From Gammaproteobacteria bacterium (GTDB lineage: Bacteria > Pseudomonadota > Gammaproteobacteria > Steroidobacterales > Rariloculaceae): a DNA stretch of 32,596 nt. Where the stretch lies: NCBI GenBank assembly GCA_004357505.1, contig SMWC01000113.1:1-32596 (forward strand), read 5' to 3'. Positions 10,143-32,596 of the stretch are shown one piece after another. The translations under genes and the position numbers were made by a program. The notes below the pieces were generated by a model. It searched no databases. It had not been told where the DNA came from and saw nothing but the letters and a program-made list of their open reading frames with translations. The first letter of the stretch is position 1. Every line of letters begins with the position of its first letter.

Positions 10143-10260
10143 GATTTCCCGATCCCATCGGCCACTGAATAGGAATGCAGCAGACTAGACGATCCGGCCC
10201 ACGCATGAATCACATCAGCGCGGCTCACATCCAAAGTTTTCTCAAGTAGGGGACTCGAGT

Positions 10261-12716: not shown

Positions 12717-12748
12717 GTGAGTTGTCCGGGCGGAGCGCGGTAGACGTC

Positions 12749-13246
12749 CTACGTGGGAGTTAGAATCGGTGCACCTCTGGCGACCGCCATGGCACCACTG
12801 CGTACCACCGTGAGGATATCGGCGCATTCGGCGACGCTCACCATGAACCGATCGATATCATGGCTACCGCCGATCAGCTCAACGGTGAAGTGCCCCTGGT
12901 GGTCATCCAATATCCGGGCACCGAAGTCACTGACCATTCCGGAGAGCTCATCCCGGCCTGCTTCGTGCAGCTGCAATTTGAACAACGCGAGTTCCCGCTC
13001 AATATGATCGCCGTCCGTCATATCGACGATGTTGACGACGTCCACGAGTTTGACGAGTTGCTTTGAAATTTGGTCTATAACAGCGTTGGAACCCGTGGTC
13101 ACGAGCGTCAGGCGAGACACCAGTTCGTTGTTCGTCGGCGCAACATTGAGGCTTTCAATATTATAGCCACGCGTAGAGAACAGGTTCGCCACACGAGCCA
13201 ACGCGCCAGCTTCGTTTTGCAGCAGTATTGAAATGATATGTCGCAT
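12749..13246 (-). CDS. ilvH: Acetolactate synthase small (regulatory) subunit
   Basis: MRHIISILLQNEAGALARVANLFSTRGYNIESLNVAPT...KQLVKLVDVV... is colinear with E. coli IlvH (ACT domain plus ALS_ss_C), at 165 aa. Confidence 0.9.
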   Translation of the reverse strand: MRHIISILLQNEAGALARVANLFSTRGYNIESLNVAPTNNELVSRLTLVTTGSNAVIDQISKQLVKLVDVVNIVDMTDGDHIERELALFKLQLHEAGRDELSGMVSDFGARILDDHQGHFTVELIGGSHDIDRFMVSVAECADILTVVRSGAMAVARGAPILTPT

Positions 13247-16602: not shown

Positions 16603-16736
16603 CGACTGCTTTGTTATTGCTGAGGTGCGCCAAGTTTAGGGACACTCGGAGGAGTCGGCAACACAAGGTAGCGTTACATGAGCTGCGAGCTCGTATGCCG
16701 TGAGTAGGTATACTTGTGACTCATCCGCACAACTCG

Positions 16737-20160: not shown

Positions 20161-20544
20161 CTACTGCCGAGCGATTCGCTCGACCGATCCCGTCGGAATC
20201 AACGTCAACTGCGCACGACAATCGAACGCCAGGCCGTCAAGGTCCTGCTCGTCGGCTGAAGCGTACTGCTCACCGTAGGCATCGACGAAAATTCTCGACG
20301 CGGAAATACCAGCACGAATCAACGTCTCGCGCACGCTCGCAGCCCGTTGCGCTGACAGTTGTACGTTGTGCTCCTCCGCACCGCGAGCATCTGCGTGCCC
20401 TCCCACACGAATGGACATTCCCTCCATGCGCGCCAGCAAGTTCGCCAGCCGACTCAGACGTTTCTGAGTTTCATCAGCGACCACGGTGTTATCGGTTTTG
20501 AACAGGATATGGACATCCAACGCCTCTCCGACCGCATCTTGCAT
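20161..20544 (-). CDS. OmpA-family peptidoglycan-binding domain (C-terminal segment; probably one gene with 20557-20877)
   Basis: OmpA_C-like motifs: LSRLANLLARMEGMSIRVGGHADARGAEEHNVQLSAQRAASVRETLIRAGI. No signal peptide and no RBS of its own. It is in the same frame as the upstream ORF and separated from it only by TAG plus 4 codons. Confidence 0.7.
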   Translation of the reverse strand: MQDAVGEALDVHILFKTDNTVVADETQKRLSRLANLLARMEGMSIRVGGHADARGAEEHNVQLSAQRAASVRETLIRAGISASRIFVDAYGEQYASADEQDLDGLAFDCRAQLTLIPTGSVERIARQ

Positions 20545-20556
20545 AGTCCGGGCGTC

Positions 20557-20877
20557 CTACCGGTAGCGGGTCTCGAGCATTTTGATTTGCCGCTCGCCGC
20601 TTTCAATCAGACCATTGAGGTCGGCGACCTGCTCGCGCGCGTCTGTCCAGCGTTGCTCGAACTTGATGCGCGCGCCCTGTTCCGCATCGAATCGGTCTCC
20701 GAGCCAGATCCCTGCGGCAGCGCCCAGCAACATCCCGATCGGACCTCCGGCAGCTGCGCCGATCACCGCGCCGCTACCCAGGCCGAACTTCTCAAGTTTG
20801 GTTGACTTGCTTGGTTCTGCGGCCCAACTCGCGCTCGTCAGTGTGGTAGCAAGAATTACAATTATCGCGTGTCTCAT
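20557..20877 (-). CDS. Signal peptide / glycine-zipper / coiled-coil segment (N-terminal part of the split OmpA-family protein)
   Basis: ATG 20877 is preceded by AAGGAG with a 7-nt spacer. The signal peptide is MRHAIIVILATTLTSASWA, and the Gly-zipper is GLGSGAVIGAAAGGPIGMLLGAAAGIWLG. The frame ends at TAG 20557-20559. Confidence 0.7.
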   Translation of the reverse strand: MRHAIIVILATTLTSASWAAEPSKSTKLEKFGLGSGAVIGAAAGGPIGMLLGAAAGIWLGDRFDAEQGARIKFEQRWTDAREQVADLNGLIESGERQIKMLETRYR

Positions 20878-21172
20878 GACTGTGCTCCTTTTGGTTCCTG
20901 GTGCAATACGCACGCCACCATTGAAGCTCAGGCTAGCGGCAAACCGGTGATGAATTCGGCCGAGAAGACGCTTCGAATATGACCAATTCTGACGACAGGC
21001 ATGCTGCCGGCCTTCGAAGGTCAGCTCAATAGGGGCGCGCTATGAGAGCCCCGCACGCCGGCAGAGCTGGCGAGGATACCGGACGAAAGTCCGCCGTCCC
21101 GGCAGCCTCGCAGGCACACACGGCAGCAGGACGCTCTAACTGCCAAGGCCGAACGAAGGAAGAGTCGCGCCG

Positions 21173-22177
21173 CTAGCGGCGAAGCGAAGGCAAGGCGACG
21201 AAAGTGCCCCCATTGCGCTGACACAGCACCCGCATGAGTGTCGCGAAACGGGCCGCCGTCAGCAGCTCGCCATTAGTCACTTCATAGTAGACGGGGAAAG
21301 CCACGGCGTGAATCCGGACCCGCCGTTGACCGTCCGGGCCCGCTTTATTACGCCGATCGACCTCTCTTACGACCGCATTGATGGATCCGGACGCGAAGTC
21401 GTCGCTGTAGACATACAGACTAATCTTCTTGTCGGGATCGTAGAATGTATCGATCGCCTTAAGAATGCCTTCCCTGGGACTCGAGTTGGAAAAAGCGCTC
21501 CAGTTCCGCAGCGCATTGAGTATGGCTTCGCGTCTCGCCGGCGTATCCGGAATCCACTCATTGCGATAGCTCTTGAACATGTACTCGCCCATGTCGTTGA
21601 ACACCTGGATACCCTTGACCTGCGGATAGACTTCCAGAGTCTCACGAAGCTGCTGCTGGACGCGATTCCAGGCGTAACGCTGCATGCTACCGGATGTGTC
21701 AATAATGAAGATGATGTACTCGCTGTCGACCGGGATACCGCCGATCACGTAATCGTCAGGATCGGGTTTGTAGTCGGCCAATAGACGCTGCATCTCTTCG
21801 GTTAGCCGCTGCTTCGCTTCGGCAAGTCGTCCTGCCAACTCGGCCGAGATGTCCGAATCGTCCTCTGTTGCGAGAAATTCAGCGCGTATTCGCGTCAACT
21901 CCCGTTCGAGCGACGCAATCTGAGTCTGGTCTTCATCGACACGCTCAATGGTAGATAACCGCTCGCGCCGCACGACCTCGGTCTCACCGAGTATCTCGTG
22001 TAGCTCCAGCTGATAGCGGGCGATCAATCCTTCCAACTCGACGTGGCTTTCTTCGAGCCGAATCGGCTCGAAGATCTTGGTTAAGACCAGCAGCAAGATA
22101 ACCGCCCCGAACCCGCAACAGATCACGTCCAGGAATGCCAGACCGCCGGTCTCCACTTCGCGTCGACGATATCTCAT
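21173..22177 (-). CDS. ExbD/TolR-like TM anchor / coiled coil / von Willebrand factor A domain protein (paralog 2)
   Basis: ATG 22177 overlaps the upstream stop (ATGA). The N-terminus MRYRRREVETGGLAFLDVICCGFGAVILLLVL has a basic tail followed by a TM helix with Asp17. About 110 aa are heptad-rich and Glu/Leu/Arg-rich. The vWA MIDAS motif is IIFIIDTSGSM. Confidence 0.85.
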   Translation of the reverse strand: MRYRRREVETGGLAFLDVICCGFGAVILLLVLTKIFEPIRLEESHVELEGLIARYQLELHEILGETEVVRRERLSTIERVDEDQTQIASLERELTRIRAEFLATEDDSDISAELAGRLAEAKQRLTEEMQRLLADYKPDPDDYVIGGIPVDSEYIIFIIDTSGSMQRYAWNRVQQQLRETLEVYPQVKGIQVFNDMGEYMFKSYRNEWIPDTPARREAILNALRNWSAFSNSSPREGILKAIDTFYDPDKKISLYVYSDDFASGSINAVVREVDRRNKAGPDGQRRVRIHAVAFPVYYEVTNGELLTAARFATLMRVLCQRNGGTFVALPSLRR

Positions 22178-23265
22178 GGCCAATCCTCCGAAGGCGCCAT
22201 CATCGATCCGCCGGTGCTGAGCGCCAGCCACCAGTAATCCGGGGCAGCCTGGGGATCACCCTCCATCGCGTAGAGAATGACATTGACGGGAACGTTGAAC
22301 GGTAACTCTCGTGCGGCACGAGTGAAATGGCCGTGACGTTCCCTGCCGCTGACGCCGGCACGGGTCGGGATGATCTCCCCCATCGTCGGCAGGCCGTCTA
22401 CGAGCAGGTAGATATTGTCGGGCTTGGGATCCAGCGGCCGCATAGATGCGAACGCCGCATGCAGGCTCGTGGGTCCTTGCGGCACGGTGGCGCGTAAGGT
22501 CTCCACAGCCTGATCCAGTTGACCGCCATCCGTAATCGTCAACCACTGACCGTCGGTTCCCTCAATCAGCGACCACGCTCGGTCATTGAAAGCGAAGATC
22601 TGAAATTGCGTGCCGGGCGTGAGCTGCGTCGTCAACCAGTCCAGCGTGTCGACCACCTGCCGCCACTTCGGTGCAGCGAGCTGCTGGTCTATCGGCATAT
22701 TCCTGCGGCGAAGGATATTGACGAGGGTACGGTCCAGCATGCTGCCGGAAGCGTCCACAAGGATCACGACGCGTTCGCCGCCCATTCTCATACCCGTCAA
22801 GTATTGGCGGTTACCGTCCCCGGTGAAACTACGAATACGGTTGCCGGCGTCCTCCAGTGTAATACTCGCTGCAGAAAGACGCTGCGTCTCCTCCTCCAAT
22901 GAGTCAAGCTCCGAGCGAAGTCGCTCGATGGCTTCTTGCTGAGCGGTCGTGTCCGCCGTCAACGTACTGAATTCCTCTGCCGTCAGCGAAATCTCCGTAA
23001 TAATCTCTTCTCTCAGACCCCGCAGGATCGCCCACTCCTGGATGAGTTCGGCCAACTCCTGTTGAATTTGCACCAGATTCTTGCGACCAACGAGCACCTG
23101 TAACTCCATGCGGTCCACTTCACTGGCGAGCTCGTCGAGAATGACCTCGCGACGTTCATCGATATTCGCATTGATAATCATGAAGAGCAGAACCACGGCG
23201 CCGAGACCACAGGTCATGGCGTCGAGGAACGACAACGAAAACACGGTGATGGCCTTACGTGCCAT
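22174..23265 (-). CDS. ExbD/TolR-like TM anchor / coiled coil / von Willebrand factor A domain protein (paralog 1)
   Basis: ATG 23265. The N-terminus MARKAITVFSLSFLDAMTCGLGAVVLLFMI has a TM helix with Asp15. A coiled-coil-like stretch runs ELASEVDRMELQ...LRSELDSLEEETQRL. The vWA MIDAS motif is VVILVDASGSM. It overlaps the upstream gene's stop by 11 nt. Confidence 0.85.
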   Translation of the reverse strand: MARKAITVFSLSFLDAMTCGLGAVVLLFMIINANIDERREVILDELASEVDRMELQVLVGRKNLVQIQQELAELIQEWAILRGLREEIITEISLTAEEFSTLTADTTAQQEAIERLRSELDSLEEETQRLSAASITLEDAGNRIRSFTGDGNRQYLTGMRMGGERVVILVDASGSMLDRTLVNILRRRNMPIDQQLAAPKWRQVVDTLDWLTTQLTPGTQFQIFAFNDRAWSLIEGTDGQWLTITDGGQLDQAVETLRATVPQGPTSLHAAFASMRPLDPKPDNIYLLVDGLPTMGEIIPTRAGVSGRERHGHFTRAARELPFNVPVNVILYAMEGDPQAAPDYWWLALSTGGSMMAPSEDWP

Positions 23266-24655
23266 CGGCTTCCTCTATCACGATCGCCTGCAGTTCCTCT
23301 CCCGGGGAACCGATGCGGATCACATCAGCGGGTTGAATCGCAAGCTCACCAGAGACTCGTCTCTCATTGACGAATGTCCCATATTGGCTTAAATCGCTGA
23401 GTTTGAGCTCGCCGTCACGACGTACCAGCTCGCAGTGCGAGCGGGACACGCCACTGTGCTCGCCATTCAGCACAATCGTCCGACGCCCACCCCGGCTCTC
23501 GCGACCAATCAAGAGTCCCTTGCTGTCCACGCGGAAAGCGACCCCACGGTAGACGATGTGCGTCGCCGAACGCTCCCGCTGTCGCGCCGAATCGCGGCCG
23601 GTATCCGCAGTCGCCGACGTTACCACCTGCGTCACCGGGGCGCCCTCTTCTCGCCACGGCAGTCGTTTCAATAATTTAACTTGCCCAGGATTCGCATCGA
23701 TACTGTCAAGACTCTGTAATGCGCCCAGCGCCGCCGCACCGACGGGCAACGGTAGAATGTGCGCATCATCCAGCCGCGAGAGTTCATTGACGACTCCCGG
23801 CAAGCCGAGCAGACGGTGCGACACCTGTACGACCAGGCTGTCTCCGGTACTTCTGCACTGCGCAATCAATTGCACCAACGCGCGAAAAAATCCGGCGGCA
23901 ACGCCAAGCAATTGGTCGCGCTTCACCTCTACGCAAAGCTCCTTCCCACCATGCGGAAGCTTAAGCTCGGCACGGTCCTGCTCATGCAGGCTCTGCAACC
24001 ACATCGGCAAACGATCGTAGACGAGCTGTTCGCTCTCGGCGCCGTGAAACGGATCAAATCGTGTCGCCAGAACGAAGATCTCCGCGACGCGCTTGGCCCA
24101 TAAGTCCATCAGCGAGGCAAGGCCGACGCCATCGATCACCTGCTCCGTCGTTGCAGCAACATCGCTAGCCTGTTCGAGCGTCGTCGCGGAAACACGATGT
24201 AATCCGGCGTCCAGGTAGATCAATTGCTGGCCGGGGTAGGGTCTAGGGCTCGCAGCCGCAGCAGTATTCACTAACGATCGTACCGGCATTCCGCACTCCT
24301 GGGCGAGTCCCAACAACAGCCCGAGCTGCTCGCGGCTGTAGTGGTCAGGCACAACCAGCAAGGCATCCTTGTCCTCACCGCCGTACCGTTTCCAAAGGTT
24401 CTCAAGCTGCGCGAATGCAAGCTGGGCCGTGTTATCGACACCTTCCAGACCCGCGCTCCCCTGCTTGAGACTCAGGTTCTCCCAGTAACGGTTATTGCTA
24501 TCGCGCGGTCTGAGGCGCGCCTGAGAATAAGCATCATTGCCCGTCAGAATTTCACCGTCGGCGAGCAGCGCATAACCAGGTTCCGTGCCGAGCACTCCTG
24601 ACTCATCGGCGATAACCAGGTTCGCATCATTGATATCGATAGCGAGCGTGCTCAC
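23255..24655 (-). CDS. Hsp70/actin-like (ASKHA-fold) domain with degenerate nucleotide loops, fused to a canonical C-terminal FHA domain
   Basis: Three Hsp70-like motifs occur in the correct order. [13 protein letters not shown] corresponds to [50 protein letters not shown] corresponds to [50 protein letters not shown] corresponds to DLGGGTFDVS. The FHA domain at aa ~365-466 reads LLIGRE...[10 protein letters not shown]...[16 protein letters not shown]...DVIRIG, with the canonical Gly-Arg, Ser-x-x-His and Asn. The start is GTG. Confidence 0.8.
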   Translation of the reverse strand: [466 protein letters not shown]

Positions 24656-24665
24656 GAATCTCTCG

Positions 24666-25475
24666 CTATTGCACGCCGCCGCGCGACTGCATGTGACGGA
24701 TCAGGTTGTGATCGATATAAGTCTGCGTATCAAATACGGCTCGTTCCTGCAGCGATTGCAGTTGGTGAACCAAAAACATCACGACAATAGAGATCAACAA
24801 CGCAATGAAAGTGGAATTAAACGCGGTACCGAGACTCAGCGTCACACCCATGATATCGCCGTCGACGGCACGGTGAGCTTGTCCGAGCGCGTCACCGATT
24901 CCGCGAACGGTACCGATAAATCCGACAGATGGAATTGCCCAAGCGATATAACGAATCATCGACAGCTCAGACTCCAGCCTGCCACCTTCCGATTCGCACA
25001 GAGTATTGGCGACGGAAGACACATCCTGGATGTTGCGCGTTGAGCCGAAACGCTCCAATGAAGACAACAGCACACGCGGCAGTAACATGTCGCGCGATCC
25101 ACCCGGTAGCGCCTGCAGCGTGCGCGCATATTCTCGCGAGTCCTCGGGCAGAATTCTGACGCCGTCTGGAACGGGCACGAGCACCTGTTGCAACAGCTTT
25201 CGCTCGCGCAGAGATGTAGTTGCCTTGTAGCCCATGATGGAAAACGCCCACAGCATCAGCACAAAGCACGATTCCTGTTCGAAGTCCTTGATCAAGACCC
25301 AGAAAGAACGCTCGACCGTGAAATTCGTGTCTTCCTGAATCTGCAACGCCTGTTCATTCAGGACTGCGGTCGCCCTTGGCCTGACGACCGTCACATAGGT
25401 CGCGTGCACGACAATGATCGCGATAATCAGGGAAAATACCTGGAAGAGGAATTCTGTTTGAAAGTTACGTTTCAT
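24666..25475 (-). CDS. MotA/TolQ/ExbB-family proton channel protein
   Basis: Four hydrophobic segments with a ~95-aa loop between TM2 and TM3. C-terminal family signature: IRYIAWAIPSVGFIGTVRGIGDAL...GVTLSLGTAFNSTFIALLISIVVMFLV. Confidence 0.88.
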   Translation of the reverse strand: MKRNFQTEFLFQVFSLIIAIIVVHATYVTVVRPRATAVLNEQALQIQEDTNFTVERSFWVLIKDFEQESCFVLMLWAFSIMGYKATTSLRERKLLQQVLVPVPDGVRILPEDSREYARTLQALPGGSRDMLLPRVLLSSLERFGSTRNIQDVSSVANTLCESEGGRLESELSMIRYIAWAIPSVGFIGTVRGIGDALGQAHRAVDGDIMGVTLSLGTAFNSTFIALLISIVVMFLVHQLQSLQERAVFDTQTYIDHNLIRHMQSRGGVQ

Positions 25476-25494
25476 GGCTAGTGGTCCAACAAGG

Positions 25495-25704
25495 TTATAT
25501 GTTGACCGGGAAGATCACTTCTTCGTCCGCGTCGATCTCGTCGCTGGGAATAAAAATCTCATCGAGCGGGCGCGTGTCCGGAGGAGCGGGCGGCGCCACC
25601 GTGGTTGTCGTGTCGACCTCTGGGGGGGCAGCGTCCTGACCTACAGACGACACCGATAGGGCCATCAAAGCCAATAGCGCCAATAGCATTCGTGGTAAGT
25701 GCAT
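25495..25704 (-). CDS. Small secreted Pro-rich/acidic peptide (69 aa)
   Basis: ATG 25704 has GGGAG about 8 nt upstream. The signal peptide is MHLPRMLLALLALMALSVSSVG. The mature ~47 aa read QDAAPPEVDTTTTVAPPAPPDTRPLDEIFIPSDEIDADEEVIFPVNI. The gene stops 20 nt before the motA-like start. Confidence 0.6.
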   Translation of the reverse strand: MHLPRMLLALLALMALSVSSVGQDAAPPEVDTTTTVAPPAPPDTRPLDEIFIPSDEIDADEEVIFPVNI

Positions 25705-25756
25705 CGTCATTTCTCCCGACAAAGACTCATCAAGTTTAGACCAAACTGGCCACAGA

Positions 25757-28192
25757 TCATTCCAGATTACGCGCGATACGAAAGCCGATATCCTCTCTGC
25801 TATCGCTGCTGTAATTGCGGTAGGCGAGGCGCAGGTCGGTGATGGTCGCGCTCCGCCAGCTCGAGCCTCTGATCACGTGGAAACGGCCCTGTTCGGGACC
25901 CAGCGGATCAACAGCCACGGTCTCGGTCTGGGGAGAGCCGATCTCCCAGTAATCGAGCACCCACTCTGCCACGTTACCGCCCAGATCGTATACGCCCACG
26001 GCGTTCGGCGGAAAATTCCGCGCCGGCGCCGAGACATTGAAACTGTCGTTGTAGGTCACAAGCGTTGTCCGTAGCAGCGTTGCCGCCGAGACATCCGCGA
26101 AATTGCCCGAACGATCGGGGGGCGGCAAGGTATTACCCCACGGGAACGTCAGGGACTCGTCCTGACCGGCGAATCGTGCTGCCCAGGCCCACTCCGCTTC
26201 GGTCGGCAGCCGATAACCACTGCGCAGAGGTCTCACGGGAACCTGCGCACCGTCAACCTGTTCGTAGACCGGTTGAAAGCCATCGCGGATACTGAGCCAG
26301 TTCAGGAACTCGGCGATCTCATCCCAGGTCACGCGGACGACCGGCTGATCATCTTCGTTCAGGGAGACGCCGCCATACGAACCGGAGTCATGATCTGCAC
26401 GGAATGCCCGAAACTCTGCGTTGCTGACCTCCTGCACACCGAGATAGAACGCCTCGCTGATACTCACAGCCCGTAGGACTTCGTTCGAGCGGCGTCCTTG
26501 CTCGCGACGCGATGACCCCATCATGAAGTCACCCGACGGAATCAGCGTTAGTACCTGCGCAAGGCTCGTCTGCACCTCCTTCTCGTAGCCCGAGCCCGTA
26601 CTTGTATTCAACTCCTCCAGGGTCACATCGAGTATCTGCGGAAACCCCGGTTTTGGCGTGACTTCCCGCGCCTGCTCGGCGAAGCCCGCGAGTCGAATCT
26701 CGATCCGATGACTGAGCGCGGACAGTATTAGCTCGCGCGGCGTCACGCCTAGCTGCTCCCCATCAACCCAAACTTCGGCAGCGTCAGGATCGCTGCGAAC
26801 CTCGACGATCCCCATTCGCGCGGTCATCGAGAGTGTGAGCCTGCGATCGCTGTCAGCCACGACGGAGAGCTCCTGCTCGATCGAGTCGAATCCCGGTTTC
26901 GTCAATACAAGCCGATGCGGACGCTCTGGCGTAAGACGCAATGTCAGGGGCGTCTGGCCGCGATACTCGCCATCTACACTGACTGCGGCACCGGCCGGCT
27001 CGGAAGCAAGTTCGACGCGTCCATCGGCCTGTGTCAGTTCGACCTGCGGCAGCGTTTGTGGTTGGTCCGCCAAAACCGAGACGACGTCCGCCCAGGCGTT
27101 GTAGCCGCGCAGCCGAACCTCGATCAGCCGTTCCCCGGCGCTAAGCTCCATCACCAGCGGCGTCGCTCCGGTGACGGTTCCGTCCACCAGCACGGCAGCC
27201 CCGGGTGGGGCGCTGGTCACGGTGATCGGCGCCCAGTTAGGCGTCAGTTCGGCCACCAGACGCTGGTGCTCGCCGCCGCCGATGACGTCCAGCTCATGAA
27301 CTTCGGCCAGGAACCGTTCCGCGACGAACTCGATCTGATGCCGCCCGGTCGTGATCTCGGCATCGGTCAGGGGAGTGATACCAAGACGCTCACCGTCCAC
27401 ACGGACTTCCGCACGTACGTCCGGCTCGGTCGTCAGCGTCACCAGGCCCGGAAGCCGGATCATTTCGATTTCGATCGTCTGATCCGGTGCCGAAGTGACG
27501 TTGATTTCAATATCCAACGGATAGTAGCCCGCGAGCTCGGCCACAACCCGATGCGATCCCGCGCTCAAGAGCAAACGATCCCCCATTCTGATTTTCAGCA
27601 GCGTGCCCGGCAACCCGACCGTATCGGGCTCGGGTTCGACGATCAATTCGACCGACTTCGCGGTGAACGCGAACCAACCCAGTACGGCCAGTACGACAAA
27701 CGCGCCACCGACCACCAAGGCGCTGCGACTCGGTTTGACGCGCAACGTTCCGGACTTTTTCTCACCCAACGGCCGAAACGCGACTGGCGCGATCTCAATT
27801 TCATCGAGATTCGCCGCCTCCCGCGCCAGTTCCTCCAGATCGGGCGGTGCGGTATCGCCGCCGGTCACGACCCCTGAGATTTTCAGGTTCAATCGTTCTC
27901 CGCCAAGCGAACAGTCGAGCCTGGCAGTATCCAGCGCAATCGTCTCACCGTTCTTAAGCCAGCGTGTCCCGGCTACCGGTTCACCGTCGATCCGCAGATT
28001 CCGGGTGTCTCGACCGGGCTGAATAAAAAAACTGCCGTCAAGCCAGCCGATCTGAAGCGATCCCGAGACTCCCTGCAGGCGAACGTCGCTATTAATGTCG
28101 CCACCGATCGTTACCGGCAATTCGGCGGCGCTGAAATGCCGCTCTTGGCCACCGACCGACGTTGTCAGTACCCGGTGATTCGCTGCCGTCAT
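25757..28192 (-). CDS. FHA-like domain / TM helix / five PEGA repeats / FGE-sulfatase (SUMF1-like) domain protein
   Basis: The N-terminal FHA-like fold (PVTIGGDINSDVRLQ...FFIQPG...LRIDGEPV...LKNGETIAL) lacks the canonical Arg and His. The TM helix is ALVVGGAFVVLAVLGWFAF (aa ~157-177). PEGA-like units include VRVDGERLGITPL, VLVDGTVTGATPL, VSVDGEYRGQTPL and VWVDGEQLGVTPR. The C-terminal FGE-sulfatase motifs are FMMGSS...YLGVQEVSNAEF...GYRLPTEAEWAWAAR...YDLGGNVAEWV...VIRGSSW...IGFRIARN. The ATG overlaps the upstream stop (ATGA). Confidence 0.88.
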   Translation of the reverse strand: MTAANHRVLTTSVGGQERHFSAAELPVTIGGDINSDVRLQGVSGSLQIGWLDGSFFIQPGRDTRNLRIDGEPVAGTRWLKNGETIALDTARLDCSLGGERLNLKISGVVTGGDTAPPDLEELAREAANLDEIEIAPVAFRPLGEKKSGTLRVKPSRSALVVGGAFVVLAVLGWFAFTAKSVELIVEPEPDTVGLPGTLLKIRMGDRLLLSAGSHRVVAELAGYYPLDIEINVTSAPDQTIEIEMIRLPGLVTLTTEPDVRAEVRVDGERLGITPLTDAEITTGRHQIEFVAERFLAEVHELDVIGGGEHQRLVAELTPNWAPITVTSAPPGAAVLVDGTVTGATPLVMELSAGERLIEVRLRGYNAWADVVSVLADQPQTLPQVELTQADGRVELASEPAGAAVSVDGEYRGQTPLTLRLTPERPHRLVLTKPGFDSIEQELSVVADSDRRLTLSMTARMGIVEVRSDPDAAEVWVDGEQLGVTPRELILSALSHRIEIRLAGFAEQAREVTPKPGFPQILDVTLEELNTSTGSGYEKEVQTSLAQVLTLIPSGDFMMGSSRREQGRRSNEVLRAVSISEAFYLGVQEVSNAEFRAFRADHDSGSYGGVSLNEDDQPVVRVTWDEIAEFLNWLSIRDGFQPVYEQVDGAQVPVRPLRSGYRLPTEAEWAWAARFAGQDESLTFPWGNTLPPPDRSGNFADVSAATLLRTTLVTYNDSFNVSAPARNFPPNAVGVYDLGGNVAEWVLDYWEIGSPQTETVAVDPLGPEQGRFHVIRGSSWRSATITDLRLAYRNYSSDSREDIGFRIARNLE

Positions 28193-29724
28193 CCGATCGG
28201 CTCGACACAGCGCACCTCGACCGGAGCTAACTCCCGTCCAGGCAGTACGGTAAATGTTGTGCGGACATCGCGATAGCCGTGGCGACTACCAACAGCGGTA
28301 TAGTTTCCGGGCCGTATCTGAACCTGAGTGACGGCGAAGGTGCCGAGCAAGCCGACGCGATAAAGCGTAACGTTGGTGAGCTCGTCGGAGTGAAGCTCGA
28401 CAGTCACGAGCGTCGACGCGAGGACCACGAGCCGATTCAGGTCGGCGATCTGCTCTTCAAGCCGCGGTCCCGGATCCTCCACGCTCCGAGCATCCGCTAC
28501 TAAACCGCCGGCGTCGGCCAGCACACGGTCGTCGAACAACAGGGTCGGATTACCGATCAGGTTAACCAGCTTCGCCTCCAGATCGGCCCTCAGCACAGAG
28601 CGCTCGAGTCCGGCCTGAGCAAAAACCAGCGTTGCATCGGTCACGAGCAGATCGCGGTAGAGTTGAATGGCCCGCTCCCACAGCTCACGGCGCTCAAAGG
28701 CCAGCGCGCGTGCTTCGACCAGCGCGATCTGTTCCAATTTCTGTCCCTGCTGTGCCTGGATTTGGCCATCGAGCGCCTCGGCAGAACCCGGCCGCAGGAT
28801 CAACGCCTCGCCGAACAGTTCAAGGGCAGCGGCGAATTCTTCTTCCGCCAGCGCCGTCAGACCTTGCGACATTCGTGTCTCGAAGCGTCGATTGTCGATA
28901 CGTGCGGTGACCGCAGTCAGCGCCGACCGCGCCGGCGCCCAGGATGGGTCGAGTCCGAGCGCTGCCCGGAAAGCTCGCGCAGCCTCCTCCAGATCACCCT
29001 GCCGTTCGAGCTCGGTGCCCTGCTGTACGAGCACGAGCACCTCCGGAAGACGCTCGGCCCGCTCGAGTCCCGCTTGAGCGGGCGCATTGCCAGCTTCTAT
29101 TCCGATAACGAGCTGAAATTGTTCTAGGGCCAGTCGCGCATTGCCGGCATCGAGTGCCGCGTTACCGGCGCTGAGCGCGGCCGTGATGATTTCCGCCGAC
29201 CGGCCGAGTAATTGCTCGCCAATCTGCAGCGCGTTGGCGTATGCCGGTACGGCGTCCTGGAACGCGTCCGCAAGATAAGCGTCGTCGCCGGCACGAGAGC
29301 TCTGCTGATACTCCTCCCAGGCGTCTCCTCCCCACTCGGCCGCGGCTAGTCCGTCCAGCCGAGCCTGTTGAGTGAGTAACTCCGCCAACAACTTTTCAGC
29401 CTGATCCCTGAGCGTCGCTAGCTCTGTCGCGGTCAGCACAGGCCCCTCAGGTTCCTCGGGCAAGACCTCTACAGGCAGCGCCAGCACCGGTTCCTCGGGC
29501 TGTTGCTCCGCGACCCACAGCGGTAATACGAATATGACGGCTAGCACCAGCAGCAGCGACACGACCAGGGCGGTACCCACGAGTAGCCGCGAGTGCCGGC
29601 TGTCTCTCTGCCGGGCAGCTGTAACGGGCTTGACGCGCGCCAAGCCCAGTTTGACCGGGATGATGGTCTCTTCGTGAGCGGTCGCTTGCGGGTCTGTGTC
29701 TGTCACAACAGTCGGCTTACTCAT
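28189..29724 (-). CDS. Single-pass membrane protein with TPR-like repeats and a C-terminal PEGA-like beta domain
   Basis: The TM helix is LLVGTALVVSLLLVLAVIFVLPLWV (aa ~47-72). It is followed by repeated A-x-x-x-Y/F-x-x-A-L helical pairs (AYLADAFQDAVPAYANALQIGE, LALEQFQLVIGIEAGNAPAQAGLERA, EEAARAFRAALGLDPSWAPA, AAALELFGEALILRPGSAEA). The C-terminus reads VTLYRVGLLGTF...IRPGNYTAVGSRHGYRDVRTTFTV. The start overlaps the kinase stop by 8 nt. Confidence 0.8.
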   Translation of the reverse strand: MSKPTVVTDTDPQATAHEETIIPVKLGLARVKPVTAARQRDSRHSRLLVGTALVVSLLLVLAVIFVLPLWVAEQQPEEPVLALPVEVLPEEPEGPVLTATELATLRDQAEKLLAELLTQQARLDGLAAAEWGGDAWEEYQQSSRAGDDAYLADAFQDAVPAYANALQIGEQLLGRSAEIITAALSAGNAALDAGNARLALEQFQLVIGIEAGNAPAQAGLERAERLPEVLVLVQQGTELERQGDLEEAARAFRAALGLDPSWAPARSALTAVTARIDNRRFETRMSQGLTALAEEEFAAALELFGEALILRPGSAEALDGQIQAQQGQKLEQIALVEARALAFERRELWERAIQLYRDLLVTDATLVFAQAGLERSVLRADLEAKLVNLIGNPTLLFDDRVLADAGGLVADARSVEDPGPRLEEQIADLNRLVVLASTLVTVELHSDELTNVTLYRVGLLGTFAVTQVQIRPGNYTAVGSRHGYRDVRTTFTVLPGRELAPVEVRCVEPIG

Positions 29725-30541
29725 ATTCCAACAGCATAGATTCTAAGACATTCAGGAATGGTCGCATGCCTTCCGCAGCGGATTTTTGCCCAGGACTCAG
29801 CGTAGCCTGGACAAGTTCGGCCAGGGCCCGCACGCCACCGTCGGAACCATCCGCCATCGTCACGACCGGTGGACTCGGCGCGGTCTGCAACACGGCCTGG
29901 GTCGGGTTCGCGCCGAACGGCAACCGCCCAGCCAGAAGCTCATAGATCAATACGGCAAACGCATGCACGTCGTCAGCCAGTTCGGGCGGCGCCCCTTGCC
30001 GGCGTGCCAAGCGCTCGTAGGCGAGCGTTCCACCGCCTCGCGGCGTTTTACCCCCTGTGTCCGCCGCGAGCGCGAAGTCCACAAGCCGCACCTCGCCTGT
30101 ATGGCTAAACAACACGTTGCGGGCCTTCACGTCGCGATGCACCGTGCCGCACTCGTGAACATAGGCGAGCGCAAGAGCCACATCCCGCGCCGCCCGAGCC
30201 CAGTGCCGCGGGTGAGCACCCAATAGCGGCACCAAGTCTCCGCCATCCAAGTACTCGGTAATCAGGCCCGGCATTTCCTGTACGGTGATCAAGCCCAGGG
30301 GCTTCAACACATGCGCATGGCACAGGCTCTCCAAGACCCCGAACTCACGGCGAATCAGCTGACTGGCTGCCGAGCGTGTACCCAAGTCGGCCCTGGGTAT
30401 TTTCAGTGCAACGATGACTCCGGCAATGGTTGCGGCACGCCAGACCTCGGACATTCCTCCCCGGCCCAACAGTGCGTCGATCTGCACGCCATTGCTAAGC
30501 GTGGTACCGGGCGTGACAGCTGTCTCGTAACTCACGAACAC
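29717..30541 (-). CDS. Hanks-type Ser/Thr protein kinase, catalytic domain only (274 aa)
   Basis: Gly-loop LGRGGMSEVW; VALK with Lys47; catalytic loop HRDVKARN (Asp137, Asn142); DFA in place of DFG (Asp155); GTLAYERLA; DVHAFAVLIYELLAGRLPF. No TM helix or sensor domain. The start is GTG with no obvious RBS. Confidence 0.85.
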   Translation of the reverse strand: MFVSYETAVTPGTTLSNGVQIDALLGRGGMSEVWRAATIAGVIVALKIPRADLGTRSAASQLIRREFGVLESLCHAHVLKPLGLITVQEMPGLITEYLDGGDLVPLLGAHPRHWARAARDVALALAYVHECGTVHRDVKARNVLFSHTGEVRLVDFALAADTGGKTPRGGGTLAYERLARRQGAPPELADDVHAFAVLIYELLAGRLPFGANPTQAVLQTAPSPPVVTMADGSDGGVRALAELVQATLSPGQKSAAEGMRPFLNVLESMLLEYE

Positions 30542-30600
30542 GGCGGCGGCGGCGTTAGAGACGGCGAACTGGCCGCGCCTACTGCGACCCGTAACGAATC

Positions 30601-31968
30601 TCAGCCTCCCGAGACCGCTCCGGCAATGGTTTCTGGATCCGTTTGCGTCGCAGCGTCATCGTCTGCCTCGAGATTCTCCGGCTCGATGGTAAATACCTCA
30701 AGCTCCTGCACCTCTGCCTCTGCCTCTACTTCCCCTTCGGCCACCGGCAAGGGCTCCGTGTAGATGTCGATCGCCGGAACAAAGCCCGTCTCGGCTGTAT
30801 AGAGCGCCAACAGCAGCTCTTTCCACTCCTCGTATTGAGCGTTCGCCGTTCCGGTCAGGCGATGTTGCGTCCCCTCGATCTCCACGACCATGGGCTTGAC
30901 CTCATCGTCAAAGCTCGCGGAAAGCTCCTCCAGGGTCTCGGAGTGGAGACGTTTCTCATCACGCCGGACGGCGGCTGTCTTGATCAGATCCATGCCCGTG
31001 TACATCATGGCGTCACGCAGTATGCGGCTGGTGAAATCACCGTCGCTATTGGCGCCGTAGAGCACTGAAGCCACAATCGTGGCTATACCCAGCGTCGTTC
31101 GCCAGCGACTGGACCGTTGCAGCTCACGAATCGAAATGGCTTCTTCCCTGGCGAATTCGCGCCAGCCGTTATAGGACTCTTCCGCGCTCTGATAGAAGTC
31201 TTCGTAGTGCTCGTTTAGCGTCTCGACAAATAGATGTTCGCGTTCACGAACCCGCAGCGTTCGCTCGAACTGGGGGTCGTCTTCCGCCGGTAGGCGGTTC
31301 AGGCTGTAGACGCCACGGCGGTCGGGCTCGAGGTAATCAGCGTAGACCTCCGGACTGAGGTCGCCGGCAAAGCGCAATTGTGCGATTGCCCGAAGATTCT
31401 CCGCCTCACGGGCAGACAGATCGCCTTGAATATCCGCCAGATCATTAGCAATAGAGTTAAAGACATCCTGGTAGGGGTCACGATCCGGGTAACGTTGACG
31501 GTTATACGCGCCAGCCGCCGTGGACATCTCGTAGTCTTGATCCAACCAGACACGACCGGAAGCGTCGACCGCCTGCACGTCCAATTGAACCCGGTCACCA
31601 TCGGAGTGCAATATCTCGGCAGTGACCTGCAGATCCGCGACCAGGGATTCTTCCGGGGTTACCCAGACGGCACCCCAATGACCGCTCTTTTGCAGCGTAT
31701 CTCTGAGATGCACAGTCATAAAACGGGCTTCGGTGCGGCGGATATGAACGAATGTGCCGTTGCGTAGCAGATCCTCAAGTACTTCCTTGTCTATATCGCC
31801 GTCGGGAACTCCAGGGTCGAATATGACGACGGCGACGTCGAGCAACTGCGCTTCCGGAATAGTCTCCGTTGCCGGTACCAGTGCGACGGTATGCGCAACA
31901 CGAACCTCAGTCGTGCTACAGCCCGCGAGTAACACTGCTCCGAGTAACAGAATGCCGAATCGCCGCAT
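30601..31968 (-). CDS. Lipoprotein of unknown function with an acidic C-terminal tail
   Basis: ATG 31968 is preceded by GGAGAAG about 8 nt upstream; the ORF-track TTG 31983 is less likely. The lipobox is MRRFGILLLGAVLLAGCS. An internal hydrophobic segment reads TTLGIATIVASVLYGA. The C-terminus is EGEVEAEAEVQELEV...EADDDAATQTD. No family recognised. Confidence 0.7.
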   Translation of the reverse strand: MRRFGILLLGAVLLAGCSTTEVRVAHTVALVPATETIPEAQLLDVAVVIFDPGVPDGDIDKEVLEDLLRNGTFVHIRRTEARFMTVHLRDTLQKSGHWGAVWVTPEESLVADLQVTAEILHSDGDRVQLDVQAVDASGRVWLDQDYEMSTAAGAYNRQRYPDRDPYQDVFNSIANDLADIQGDLSAREAENLRAIAQLRFAGDLSPEVYADYLEPDRRGVYSLNRLPAEDDPQFERTLRVREREHLFVETLNEHYEDFYQSAEESYNGWREFAREEAISIRELQRSSRWRTTLGIATIVASVLYGANSDGDFTSRILRDAMMYTGMDLIKTAAVRRDEKRLHSETLEELSASFDDEVKPMVVEIEGTQHRLTGTANAQYEEWKELLLALYTAETGFVPAIDIYTEPLPVAEGEVEAEAEVQELEVFTIEPENLEADDDAATQTDPETIAGAVSGG

Positions 31969-31983
31969 CGCAAACTTCTCCAA

Positions 31984-32596
31984 CTATCGCCGCACAATAA
32001 TCTTTTTATATTCGTTGTACTCGTTCCAAAGGGCCGCGCGGAGAAACGGGTCATTCTCCTCGGTGGCGGCCTCACACAGCTGGCGAGCGACCTTATCTCG
32101 ATCGTCGCAGCCTTCGATCTGAGCTGCGGTCCGTTCAGCCTCGGATCGATTCTCGAATACCGATAGCGGATTGTTCGTCTCGGCGCCATCTTCGACGCCC
32201 TGTGCCCCCTCGCCAACCGGCATCTCGTGGGCGTCGACGGGTTTGCCTATATCCCCAGCCGCACCGAAGGCTTCGTCTGCAGCGCTACCAACACCGGCTC
32301 GCGCCATCGCCTCCCGTTCGTCGCCCATAATCGCGTCGAACTCCTCCAGAGACCGATTGAAGGCATCCTCCGCGTTGGCCATCTGGCCATCGCTACCGAT
32401 CTGCGTGCCGTCGCCAAAGACGTCCTGGTCAGCCGAATCGCCCTGCGCCTGCCGGGATTCGGTGCCTTGCTGGCCCGCTTGGCCTGGCTCGCCCTGCTGC
32501 TGGGCTTGCTGTTCACCCTGCTGGCCTGCTTGGCCTGGCTCGCCCTGCTGCTGGGCTTGCTGTTCACCCTGCTGGCCTGCTTGGCCTGGCTCGCCC
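31984..32596 (-). CDS. Gln/Gly-rich tandem-repeat protein; 5' end lies outside the window
   Basis: Hand translation shows the frame of ORF 31984-32382 stays open up to the window edge: ...GEPGQAGQQGEQQAQQQ GEPGQAGQQGEQQAQQQ GEPGQAGQQGTESRQAQGDSADQDVFGDGTQIGSDGQ MANAEDAFNRSLEEFD.... The ATG at 32382 is therefore internal. The TAG stop abuts the next gene. Confidence 0.65.
   Translation of the reverse strand, partial: GEPGQAGQQGEQQAQQQGEPGQAGQQGEQQAQQQGEPGQAGQQGTESRQAQGDSADQDVFGDGTQIGSDGQMANAEDAFNRSLEEFDAIMGDEREAMARAGVGSAADEAFGAAGDIGKPVDAHEMPVGEGAQGVEDGAETNNPLSVFENRSEAERTAAQIEGCDDRDKVARQLCEAATEENDPFLRAALWNEYNEYKKIIVRR
32470..32596 (-). repeat. 51-bp in-frame tandem repeat, at least 2.5 copies, running off the window edge
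   Basis: The units are 32470-32520, 32521-32571 and 32572-32596 (truncated by the window). Copies 2 and 3 are identical over their overlap. Copy 1 differs at one position (C at 32476 versus T at 32527), which is synonymous (GCG/GCA Ala). Each unit encodes the 17-aa GEPGQAGQQGEQQAQQQ. Confidence 0.9.

Follow-up and report, generated by a model that had tools for sequence, protein, structure and literature searches.

A conserved eleven-gene cluster that probably encodes an envelope machine built on a TolQ/ExbB-type motor with two vWA proteins

The 11 genes lying between positions 20161 and 32596 of the window (the whole 32,596-nucleotide stretch of DNA that was analysed) form one conserved functional unit around a MotA/TolQ/ExbB-family channel. 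Their products probably, with a rough probability of 0.7, make up a single envelope machine in which a proton-driven 5:2 motor of the TolQ/ExbB type works with a set of partners and is regulated by phospho-threonine signalling. The genes, in the direction of transcription, are as follows.

Gene 1, 31984..32596, minus strand: 3' part of a Q/G-repeat protein (translation)
Gene 2, 30601..31968, minus strand: lipoprotein of 455 aa with the lipobox LLAGC, of no known family
Gene 3, 29717..30541, minus strand: Hanks-type Ser/Thr kinase of 274 aa (Pkinase 5.5e-27)
Gene 4, 28189..29724, minus strand: TM-TPR protein of 511 aa (TPR_2 3.9e-9; hydropathy)
Gene 5, 25757..28192, minus strand: FHA-like-TM-PEGA-FGE protein of 811 aa (Pfam matches to PEGA and FGE-sulfatase; FHA profile matches)
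Gene 6, 25495..25704, minus strand: small acidic protein, secreted, 69 aa (hydropathy; conserved C-terminus)
Gene 7, 24666..25475, minus strand: MotA/TolQ/ExbB-family channel subunit of 269 aa (PF01618)
Gene 8, 23255..24655, minus strand: Hsp70-NBD-fold plus FHA protein of 466 aa (FHA by Pfam; AF2/Foldseek)
Gene 9, 22174..23265, minus strand: vWA1, 363 aa (Asp-bearing TM helix, coiled coil, MIDAS)
Gene 10, 21173..22177, minus strand: vWA2, 334 aa, with the same architecture as vWA1
Gene 11, 20161..20877, minus strand: OmpA-domain protein, interrupted by a TAG (OmpA 2.1e-16)

A first-pass annotation of this DNA had counted 12 genes, the last of them split. The total is 11, since the "split" OmpA gene is one gene with a single in-frame TAG (20557-20559), through which a single-frame tblastn alignment continues; in relatives, near-identical contigs among them, it is uninterrupted (as in L001-L003 and L092/L093) and encodes 238-246 aa. 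The gene order was as annotated, and the ORF coordinates bear out the overlaps of 8 nt (kinase/TPR), 4 nt (TPR/PEGA-FGE), and 11 nt (FHA/vWA1). The 4 nt overlap of vWA1 and vWA2 also stands if the ATG at 22177 is taken as the vWA2 start, following the gene call in L092. By the same coordinates, stop and start codons overlap at four junctions; no other intergenic gap exceeds 60 nt, apart from the one of about 295 nt ahead of the OmpA gene. All of the domains named in the annotation proved real by Pfam search, profiles, and structure comparison, and the predicted placement of components on both sides of the inner membrane is supported.

The MotA-like gene is present in at least 598 species. In the best 80 of these, which span several gammaproteobacterial families and the Acidobacteriota (taxon names being the labels of MAG records), the order is kept: lipoprotein, (kinase-)TM-TPR, TM-PEGA-FGE, small secreted protein, MotA-like, Hsp70-like(-FHA), vWA, vWA. 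Thus, the same 8-10 genes do co-occur across phyla, a point on which the first-pass annotation had called for a check. The arrangement extends to metagenomic contigs in which the MotA-like protein shares just 34-46% identity. The MotA-like subfamily itself comprises 154 clusters at E <= 1e-30. Between families and phyla the MotA-like protein shows 59-80% identity, under strict synteny. The MotA-like gene and the two vWA genes constitute the invariant core, found in 12 of 12 independent contexts, distant and near. Gene order is likewise conserved for the lipoprotein, TPR, PEGA-FGE, small-protein, and QG-lipoprotein genes, both across the 80 species and in 5-6 of the 9 distant contigs. A chance juxtaposition of several unrelated operons could account for the gap ahead of the OmpA gene and for the fact that the OmpA gene (found in a subset of relatives only) and the kinase are not universal. 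Against it stand the overlapping codons at four junctions, the conservation of orientation as well as order in the 80 species and in distant contigs, and the flanks, which are housekeeping and biosynthetic genes that differ among relatives while the block persists. The likelihood of chance juxtaposition is close to nil, and for genes 1-10 it is rejected by the synteny data.

At the center of the unit is the MotA-like protein, which matches PF01618 in Pfam with 47.7 bits against a cut-off of 22.9 (E 1.6e-12) and carries the signatures IRYIAWAIPSVGFIGTVRGIG and LGTAFNSTFIALLISI. Its profile aligns with TM2-TM3 of TolQ (E 0.0025) with both pore threonines conserved, and it is predicted to form a pentameric stator. 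vWA1 begins with an Asp-bearing, transpore-type TM helix, FSLSFLDAMTCGLGAVVLL, followed by about 110 aa of coiled coil, a region supported by coiled-coil matches, and then by a vWA domain bearing the MIDAS residues DASGS...T...D. Its paralogue vWA2, about 22% identical, has the helix LAFLDVICCGFGAVILL and the MIDAS sequence DTSGS. In both proteins a basic stretch precedes the helix, which conforms to the common pattern FSLSFLDxxxCGFGA and is the most conserved segment of either paralogue. The Asp within it is invariant in 28 of 28 N-termini, distant ones included, and nearly invariant in alignment A3, the exception being an Ala in vWA1 of locus L006. The vWA domains in the window are divergent, falling below the Pfam cut-off (VWA_2 6e-5; VWA 2.6e-4) and having no match in a PDB sequence search; among 27 orthologues and paralogues, VWA_2 matches 22 and VWA_3 matches 9, and the MIDAS DxSxS motif is conserved.

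None of the clusters inspected contains an ExbD, TolR, or MotB gene. Because a profile of the vWA TM helix did not detect these proteins by sequence, the helix is likened to theirs by pattern, and homology is not claimed. Nevertheless, a TM helix that carries an invariant Asp and is preceded by basic residues is the hallmark of the B, or axle, subunit, suggesting that vWA1 and vWA2 are likely the TolR/ExbD/MotB-equivalent axle of a TolQ-like 5:2 motor. We infer the 5:2 stoichiometry and the heterodimeric nature of this axle. The earlier statement that a standard ExbD or MotB partner is missing is therefore misleading, for the vWA pair with its Asp helices appears to be that partner in a new guise. 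The likely axle role of the paralogues had been overlooked in the first reading.

The familiar motors resemble this one in part. Among solved structures, the channel's nearest relative is TolQ, from the Tol-Pal system (TolQ-TolR-TolA-TolB-Pal-CpoB), and each of the two clusters encodes a TPR protein as well as a peptidoglycan-binding protein of the OmpA/Pal kind. In addition, the N-domain of gene 2 faintly resembles the TolB N-domain and LptE, though not significantly (E 0.02). Unlike Tol-Pal, however, the cluster lacks TolR, TolA, and TolB; the axle has a coiled coil and vWA heads rather than the TolR periplasmic domain; the OmpA gene scores only 63.9 bits with the Pal model, whose cut-off is 125; and Tol-Pal offers no counterpart for the kinase/FHA layer or the PEGA-FGE protein. 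The Ton system (ExbB-ExbD-TonB) likewise has a PF01618 channel with three predicted TM helices and a partner in which an N-terminal basic stretch precedes an Asp-bearing helix, but the ExbD periplasmic domain, TonB, a TonB-dependent receptor, and the SHLS-His motif of TonB/TolA are all absent here.

The motor core by itself was noted, computationally, in 2025. As described in a section of a paper in Mol Biol Evol (PMC12204202), a tolQ-like gene is immediately followed by two heterologous, TM-tethered 'TPH-vWA' genes, with no tolR, exbD, or motB; the motor, proposed from AF3 models, has a conserved helix Asp and a ring of channel threonines, occurs in Proteobacteria, and is given there as of unknown function. 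The two cores are likened by description, the reference in that paper being Idiomarina; the occurrence in Acidobacteriota is additional here. That section of the paper treats three genes only, by synteny and AF3, and does not mention the lipoproteins, TM-TPR, PEGA-FGE, small protein, Hsp70-like protein, kinase/FHA layer, or OmpA gene. Hence the array is not wholly "undescribed", as it had been called. New are the conserved partner set (two lipoproteins, TM-TPR, non-catalytic PEGA-FGE, and a small acidic FPxDI protein) and a phospho-threonine layer whose parts vary together (a kinase that most relatives carry as a fusion with the TPR protein, a canonical FHA on the Hsp70-NBD-fold protein, and a degenerate FHA on PEGA-FGE). 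Literature searches found no named, characterised system that matches the cluster.

The partners are mostly envelope proteins. Gene 1, which runs past the end of the window, is a low-complexity lipoprotein in relatives, judging by the lipoboxes of orthologues; contigs L092 and L093 likewise break within its repeat. Full-length relatives share the C-terminal motif DDDxVARQL(R/C)EAAxxExDPxLRxxLWxEYxxYK, which is also found upstream of the lipoprotein gene in the distant loci L084, L085, L086, and L089. The gene 2 lipoprotein has an N-terminal alpha/beta domain and then a long helical hairpin (AF2 pLDDT 69). It has no match in Pfam or NCBIfam and nothing significant in Foldseek, where the best matches are the TolB N-domain, LptE, and PqiC (E >= 0.02), yet it represents a conserved family (alignment A5), whose HMM finds the distant loci with E from 1e-20 to 2e-112. 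The product of gene 4, a gene whose position is conserved at all loci, crosses the membrane once by hydropathy (TM helix at residues about 45-70), leaving a short N-terminus in the cytoplasm and a TPR/helical region in the periplasm; its C-terminus is beta-sandwich-like, with a weak match to CarboxypepD_reg. Gene 6 encodes a signal peptide (hydropathy), a low-complexity acidic region, and the conserved C-terminus ...F(I/V)PSxEIxADxxxxFPV(D/N)I-COOH. It has no match in Pfam, but a small ORF occupies its position at nearly all loci, and the motif is retained in the four distant loci just named. The gene 11 product combines a signal peptide, a glycine zipper, a coiled coil, and an OmpA-like peptidoglycan-binding domain; its best NCBIfam models, YiaD and Pal-type, are all below cut-off.

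Gene 5 encodes an FHA-like cytoplasmic domain (residues 1 to ~110), a TM helix (~155-178), 4-5 PEGA repeats, and a domain of the FGE-sulfatase fold (Pfam: PEGA 3.2e-43; FGE-sulfatase 7.9e-39). Five PEGA repeats had been annotated; Pfam detects 4, and the spacing allows 5. The FGE domain aligns with human FGE (E 3e-24), but both catalytic Cys residues are replaced, and it is therefore termed non-catalytic. It also matches PvdO and PorK (PDB, 1.5e-14), and its best NCBIfam model is GldK (TIGR03525, 6e-30). These PorK and GldK matches raise the question of a gliding, adhesion, or surface-assembly machine, like Myxococcus Agl-Glt (with its TolQR-type motor, TPR proteins, and vWA adhesin CglB) or T9SS/Gld, in which motor force would reach a surface adhesin or secretion ring through the vWA heads or the PEGA-FGE rod. 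T9SS/gliding systems (GldLM/PorLM, GldK/PorK) also join an ion-driven motor to a non-catalytic envelope protein of this fold, and the vWA, TPR, and lipoprotein content parallels that of Agl-Glt as presented in PMC12204202 and PMC9946355. Yet the GldK score, 104.8 bits, is far under the cut-off of 350; GldL/M/N, PorN, Sov, and the Glt outer-membrane components are missing from both cluster and window; and it is the inner membrane, not the outer, that anchors the vWA domains. Moreover, the motor here is TolQ-type, not GldL, and the FGE-fold protein has an inner-membrane anchor followed by PEGA repeats instead of forming an outer-membrane lipoprotein ring. A gliding or adhesion machine is thus unlikely, though it keeps a modest chance; it would be a special case of the envelope machine, with a specific output.

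The last component is a kinase/FHA layer. The kinase in the window is soluble, with the motifs VALK, HRDVKARN, and DFA (where DFG is expected), and is separated from its receptor. In most relatives (Woeseiaceae, Acidobacteriota, and other loci) kinase and TM-TPR form a single ORF of ~750-800 aa; judged by sequence, the window kinase is the detached cytoplasmic half of a TM-TPR receptor kinase, of which gene 4 is the receptor half. In the gene 8 product, a disordered linker (342-360) joins an Hsp70-NBD-fold domain (1 to ~335) to a canonical FHA domain (~365-460; Pfam 2.9e-12) with conserved pThr-binding residues R385, S404, H407, and N430. The Hsp70-like assignment is upheld by an AF2 model (pLDDT 88.4) whose top Foldseek matches are solely Hsp70/DnaK/BiP NBDs (E ~1e-16, TM 0.65-0.68). 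The Hsp70 ATPase motifs of this domain are degenerate, and it may therefore be only a scaffold. The N-terminus of gene 5, annotated as FHA-like, indeed matches FHA profiles from the PDB (Ki-67 1.2e-4, Rv1747, GarA, EmbR, EssC) but is degenerate. The kinase domain is missing in about 1/3 of close relatives and in all distant ones sampled, and where it is missing the canonical FHA usually is too. It co-varies with the canonical FHA (35/1 vs 5/13, Fisher p = 1e-7) and with the long FHA-like PEGA-FGE (32/9 vs 3/11, p = 3e-4), both values ignoring phylogenetic non-independence. No phosphatase is encoded in the cluster. Thus, of the phospho-threonine gating first proposed, the layer itself is present, but it does not define the system.

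A related set of components is found in the T6SS threonine-phosphorylation pathway (TagQRST-PpkA-PppA-Fha1), which signals envelope cues through the lipoprotein TagQ, the FGE-fold TagR, the kinase PpkA with its periplasmic vWA, and Fha1. This shared vocabulary of lipoprotein, FGE-fold periplasmic domain, Hanks kinase, vWA, and FHA, together with a weak match of the gene 8 FHA to TagH (VI_FHA 8.6e-6), might suggest that the cluster is mainly a trans-membrane signalling module, its MotA-like protein being a PMF sensor or scaffold that does no mechanical work. Such a module is very improbable. The VI_FHA score is 25.8 bits against a cut-off of 120; the window has no PP2C phosphatase, T6SS genes, or ABC-like TagST; the vWA domains sit on the Asp-helix proteins and not on the kinase; and members of the family can do without kinase and FHA, whereas the MotA-like and two vWA genes are invariant. 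Here the phospho-threonine layer is accessory to a motor.

Slightly less improbable, but still very unlikely, is a Zorya-like system for anti-phage defence or conflict, whose motor would sense envelope perturbation at infection and signal via kinase and FHA to an effector. Zorya (ZorAB plus ZorC/D or ZorE) demonstrates that 5:2 motors can serve defence, with a channel of this type and non-canonical partners in a multi-gene cluster; in addition, the window kinase resembles those of candidate defence systems (PD-T4-6 5.6e-38, mad6 2.4e-34), and a STAND-like AAA_35-WD40 gene lies ~14 kb away. However, PADLOC detected neither ZorA/B/C/D nor another system, as expected if the system is novel, and none of its models matches the MotA-like or vWA proteins. 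The long ZorA tail and the ZorC/D/E effectors are absent, as is any nuclease, protease, TIR, or other effector. Many relatives dispense with the kinase/FHA layer, and the identity and strict synteny of the MotA-like gene, like the biosynthetic flanks, fit purifying selection on a housekeeping function rather than arms-race turnover. The defence option that the first-pass annotation had left open is thus without support.

In the favored model, a motor-driven envelope machine, the MotA-like protein would be arranged in five copies around a vWA1/vWA2 heterodimer, whose Asp-bearing helices would stand in for TolR/ExbD/MotB. As protons flow, a heterodimeric coiled-coil stalk of ~110 residues, tipped in the periplasm by the MIDAS-containing vWA heads, would rotate or be pulled. 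These heads may act on or with the conserved partners: the TM-anchored TPR protein, the TM-anchored PEGA rod ending in a non-catalytic, lectin-like FGE-fold domain, and the two lipoproteins. The FPxDI-COOH end of the small acidic protein is a plausible ligand for a MIDAS or for the TPRs, and the OmpA-like protein would serve as peptidoglycan anchor in this clade. The phospho-threonine layer added in this clade (Hanks kinase, canonical FHA on the Hsp70-NBD-fold protein, and degenerate FHA on PEGA-FGE), whose parts co-vary, would make the assembly or activity of the motor responsive to a periplasmic cue. By analogy with Tol-Pal, Ton, and Agl-Glt, the machine most likely transduces force in a housekeeping role, serving envelope maintenance or surface interaction rather than defence.

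The array has the following layout by ORF coordinates.

20161-32596, minus strand: array of 11 genes in a single block

In order of transcription, the genes encode a Q/G lipoprotein (gene 1), a second lipoprotein, a kinase, a TM-TPR protein, a PEGA-FGE protein (gene 5), a small secreted protein, a MotA-like protein (gene 7), an Hsp70-like protein with an FHA domain (gene 8), two vWA proteins (vWA1 and vWA2, genes 9 and 10), and an OmpA protein (gene 11). Pfam detects a Hanks kinase, TM-TPR, PEGA (four repeats detected) with FGE-sulfatase, MotA_ExbB, a C-terminal canonical FHA domain, and OmpA among the products, matching the domains that the first-pass annotation had assigned to these proteins; its overlaps of 8, 4, 11, and 4 nt at four junctions are also correct. 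Its count of twelve genes, with a "split" OmpA gene, has to be revised. A TAG at 20557-20559 (minus strand), the sole in-frame stop, breaks what is a single glycine-zipper/OmpA gene, and thus the array has 11 genes. A frameshift was considered for this gene and rejected, given that the halves share one frame with a single TAG between them. Since the OmpA product is intact in relatives, and is 238 residues long in contigs whose lipoprotein is 100% identical, the TAG reflects either a nonsense mutation specific to the strain or an error in the sequence.

Gene 1 is truncated by the end of the window (32380-32596, within the Q/G repeat, GEPGQAGQQGEQQAQQQ). Two independent, near-identical contigs, L092 and L093, start inside the same repeat of this gene, suggesting that the repeat causes assembly breaks; the 5' boundary of the array is therefore unseen in the window's lineage. 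A scan for promoters and terminators gave counts no higher than expected from shuffled sequence, and is thus uninformative on transcription units. The array flanks differ among relatives, those in the window being housekeeping genes (proA/proB, aminotransferases, a phosphoglucomutase, and a TPP enzyme). Elsewhere in the window, a 1320-residue protein (1818-5780, minus strand) starts with an AAA_35 NTPase domain (4e-29) and ends in a WD40 β-propeller, a STAND-like architecture typical of conflict and signalling NTPases; by position, it is unrelated to the array. A 472-residue ORF with no Pfam match (6219-7637, plus strand) adjoins a DUF2272 protein (7650-8669, minus strand). In one relative, inserted DDE transposase genes (L002:4597-5547 and 16027-17328) separate the kinase gene from the TPR gene and also occur downstream of the array, whose remainder is unaltered.

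The cluster is real and genuinely conserved. With one genome scanned for each species, the MotA-like gene is present in at least 598 species, and the gene order in the best 80 of these is [Q/G lipoprotein]-lipoprotein-(kinase)TPR-PEGA/FGE-small-MotA-(Hsp70-like/FHA)-vWA-vWA-(OmpA). By database taxon labels, these 80 carriers include Woeseiaceae, Porticoccus, Pseudomonadales, Lysobacterales, and Nevskiaceae, as well as the Acidobacteriota Holophagae, Thermoanaerobaculales, and Marinacidobacterales; one of the loci sits on a 5.9-Mb contig. Chance juxtaposition of the genes is refuted by this synteny and by that in distant contexts, and the general idea of the first-pass annotation was right. The distant sample comprises nine contexts in which the MotA-like protein is only 34-46% identical; in these, the Q/G-type lipoprotein was recognised by its C-terminal motif. 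The components fall into three tiers.

Tiers of conservation among the components of the array
Invariant core, all contexts (nine distant): MotA-like protein and two Asp-helix vWA proteins
Frequent partners, 5-6 of 9 distant contexts: Q/G-type lipoprotein, 400-450-residue lipoprotein, TM-TPR protein, PEGA/FGE protein, small secreted protein
Variable, in loci L084, L088, and L089: Hsp70-NBD-like protein without FHA
Variable, 0 of 9 distant contexts and many of the best 80 closer relatives: kinase, FHA, OmpA

At L090:4023-7192 and 10001-13095, in another relative, a minimal module of a MotA-like gene and two vWA genes has as its neighbour, ~3 kb away and on the other strand, a canonical ExbB-ExbB-ExbD-TonB-TPR cluster.

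Gene 7 matches the PF01618 model with 47.7 bits (cut-off 22.9; E 1.6e-12). Its close relatives in the database number more than 7,900, with the best 120 clusters at least 77% identical, and the protein represents a distinct subfamily of 154 clusters (50% identity, E <= 1e-30). When its profile is aligned to TM2-TM3 of TolQ (8odt), the motifs GTV(R/W)GI and (S/A)T fall on the two pore-lining threonines of TolQ (T145/T178 type), which lie in the last two TM helices. Among 45 diverse MotA-like members, T189 is nearly invariant and T222 is invariant.

The vWA pair supplies candidates for the axle of such a channel. In 5:2 motors, five channel subunits surround two axle (B) subunits, which have a lone N-terminal TM helix with an essential Asp near its cytoplasmic end and basic residues before it. 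An N-terminus of this kind is found in vWA1 and vWA2: a few basic residues precede a TM helix, FSLSFLDxxxCGFGAVILL, which is the most conserved segment in both paralogues; a coiled coil of ~110 residues separates it from the vWA head. The helix Asp (FSLSFLDxxxCGFGA) is invariant in 28 N-termini, including those of very distant members, and none of these helices has a His, i.e., the SHLS-His motif of the TolA/TonB kind is absent. An exception is vWA1 of the relative L006 (L006:12197-13297), in which Ala replaces the TM Asp (FSIAFLAVMTCGFG) and whose partner vWA2 has no clean gene call; this variant could reflect an axle that is naturally asymmetric, or else an error. The vWA chains have no Pfam or NCBIfam match to the ExbD/TolR periplasmic domain (PF02472) or the MotB OmpA-like domain. 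The N-terminal 60 residues of both proteins, a segment too short to decide, have no Pfam match at E <= 10, and a profile of the 28 helices, also short, matches no ExbD, TolR, or MotB chain in the PDB. The axle assignment is therefore made by pattern and context, on which the helix is a putative axle signature of the TolR/ExbD/MotB type.

The heads of the window's two vWA proteins fall below the Pfam cut-offs (24.0 bits versus 27, and 21.7 versus 23.8). Within the family, VWA_2 is matched by 22 of 27 members (best 4.8e-7) and VWA_3 by 9 of 27 (best 2.7e-8), and in the MIDAS motif, DxSxS, D171 is nearly invariant while S173 and S175 are invariant. Thus, the predicted vWA assignment holds at the family level even though the window's scores are sub-threshold. 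A PDB profile search returned coiled-coil matches only for the whole proteins and none for the vWA domain alone. Identity between the two paralogues is ~22% in the window, and every context examined has the pair. ExbD, TolR, and MotB genes are absent from all clusters inspected, and no ExbD or MotB model matches any cluster protein. The first-pass annotation had read the array as lacking a canonical partner set; it overlooked the Asp helix of the vWA pair, through which the system would not be partner-less.

A motor of this kind has been predicted recently. The available text of PMC12204202 (Mol Biol Evol 2025) reports that TPH-vWA genes, TM-tethered vWA genes paired with a tolQ-like gene, occur mostly as heterologous pairs closely linked to tolQ homologues with no tolR/exbD; AF3 puts their conserved Asp inside the pentamer, and the function is given as unknown. 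The reference proteins of that paper come from Idiomarina loihiensis. The window shares both the arrangement, a tolQ-like gene beside vWA genes with no tolR, exbD, or motB, and the features of the chains, a heterologous vWA pair with a conserved TM Asp and no SHLS-His. Judged by gene arrangement and helix features as that text gives them, the array belongs to the TolQ/TPH-vWA motors. The other eight array genes are not mentioned in the same text, and further literature searches turned up nothing else relevant to the array. The earlier label "undescribed" consequently fails for the motor core and stands, as far as that text goes, for the accessory set and the phospho-threonine layer.

The first-pass annotation had also raised defence of the Zorya kind, which is unlikely. 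Zorya consists of ZorA and ZorB with ZorC/D or ZorE, and PADLOC gave no match for the MotA-like or vWA proteins; over all array products its matches were confined to generic ones for the kinase and OmpA, the OmpA domain resembling the ZorB C-terminus. The absence of a system match agrees with what had been expected of a novel system. The defence reading was dropped. Against it there also stand the lack of an effector match, the strong conservation, and the housekeeping context.

Among the accessory proteins, gene 8 was called Hsp70-like, correctly at the level of fold, because the top Foldseek matches in the PDB to its AF2 model (pLDDT 88.4) are all nucleotide-binding domains of Hsp70/DnaK/BiP (E ~1e-16 and TM 0.65-0.68 against isolated Hsp70 NBDs). 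It has no HSP70 match in Pfam or NCBIfam, and an FHA domain takes the place of the substrate-binding domain. Its motifs IDINDANL and DAGLHR stand where Hsp70 has the canonical ATPase motifs IDLGTTNS and DLGGGT, and look degenerate. The FHA domain matches PF00498 with 47.3 bits (cut-off 20.7) and conserves the phospho-threonine-binding residues R385, S404, H407, and N430. The cytoplasmic N-terminus of gene 5 is a degenerate FHA-like domain: its profile matches the FHA domains of Ki-67, Rv1747, GarA, EmbR, and EssC, and it aligns with the gene 8 FHA region (hhalign), a similarity at the fold level only, as the Arg/Ser/His triad is missing. Pfam at E <= 10 gave nothing useful for the Q/G protein or for the N-terminal domains encoded by genes 5 and 8. 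The FGE-fold domain of gene 5 can be aligned with human FGE (E 3e-24), as well as with PorK and PvdO; the catalytic Cys pair of human FGE (GGSYMCHRSYCYRYR) is replaced at both positions in the window (RGSSWRSATITDLR), and the domain is predicted to be a binding module, not an enzyme. An output in gliding, adhesion, or T9SS-like secretion is possible, with support that stops at fold resemblance: gene 5 scores 104.8 bits against the PorK/GldK model TIGR03525 (cut-off 350), and the fold alone is in common. The AF2 model of the gene 2 lipoprotein is moderate (pLDDT 69) with no significant Foldseek match, likenesses to TolB-N/LptE/PqiC (E >= 0.02) being discounted.

In most relatives, kinase and TM-TPR form a single ORF of ~750-800 residues, a receptor-type Hanks kinase. 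They are split in the window's lineage, with an 8-nt overlap (29717-29724), and are also two overlapping genes in the relatives L001 and L006; where the genes are split, the kinase has DFA in place of DFG. By comparison with loci of other relatives (L010, L011, L014, L015, L031, L035, L060, L075, and L078), this is a gene fission. Across loci covering the region, FHA on the Hsp70-like protein is present/absent in 35/1 with a kinase and 5/13 without (Fisher p 1e-7, uncorrected for phylogeny), and the kinase is present/absent in 32/9 with the long PEGA-FGE form, which has the FHA-like N-terminus, and 3/11 with the short (Fisher p 3e-4, likewise uncorrected). This co-variation supports a coherent, add-on regulatory module. 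The phospho-threonine gating proposed earlier is thus retained as a kinase/FHA layer and not as a defining feature, which its presence in 0 of 9 distant contexts contradicts. A role in signalling alone is unlikely for the array: its motor is invariant, and it can do without kinase and FHA. Nor does the array correspond to the T6SS threonine-phosphorylation pathway, which requires a TagH/Fha equivalog and a PpkA-type kinase with vWA: the gene 8 FHA scores 25.8 bits against VI_FHA (cut-off 120), and PP2C (PppA) and the core genes are absent in the window. At L084:10793-11818, L088:10879-12369, and L089:10889-11857, all in distant relatives, an Hsp70-NBD-like protein adjoins the motor with neither FHA nor kinase; this suggests that the Hsp70-fold protein is the older accessory, FHA having joined it later.

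Two partners end in conserved motifs. The small secreted protein consists of a signal peptide, an acidic low-complexity stretch, and a conserved end, F-x-P-[ST]-x-x-[IV]-x-x-D-x-x-x-x-[FY]-P-x-[DN]-I-COOH, which is retained in L084, L085, L086, and L089. The Q/G lipoprotein is also disordered, with a conserved, helix-like C-terminal motif. Both motifs would be natural candidate ligands of MIDAS sites or TPR clamps.

From the observed parts, motifs, synteny, and co-variation, we infer a stoichiometry, contacts, a direction of signalling, and an output. A TolQ-like pentamer would enclose a vWA1/vWA2 heterodimeric axle, and the PMF would turn or pull its coiled-coil stalk, whose vWA heads would engage the periplasmic partner set. 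In the window's clade, the OmpA-like protein may serve as a peptidoglycan anchor in trans; cytoplasmic control would pass through the receptor kinase, the FHA/Hsp70-fold protein, and the FHA-like domain. In its fullest form, this reading makes the array a widespread sister of the Ton, Tol, and Mot systems: a trans-envelope machine of 8-11 components in which a proton-rotated coiled-coil heterodimer with two MIDAS vWA heads would grip the short, conserved C-termini of dedicated periplasmic proteins (e.g., FPxDI-COOH), gated in some lineages by a eukaryote-like kinase/FHA switch acting in the cytoplasm through the Hsp70-fold protein, and serving an envelope function not assigned to any motor. 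It is given roughly one chance in three.

To our knowledge, few ion-driven motors of the 5:2 type are understood, namely Mot, Ton, Tol, Agl, GldLM, and Zorya, and each of these opened a field. We know of no earlier description of the eight-gene accessory set and its phospho-threonine layer. The vWA-motor family is large and strongly conserved (at least 598 species; 154 clusters), and what was a three-gene prediction is now a defined parts list that includes a co-varying phospho-threonine layer and, as candidate ligands, two short motifs. The system would be a rare bacterial example of Hanks-kinase/FHA signalling coupled to a PMF motor.
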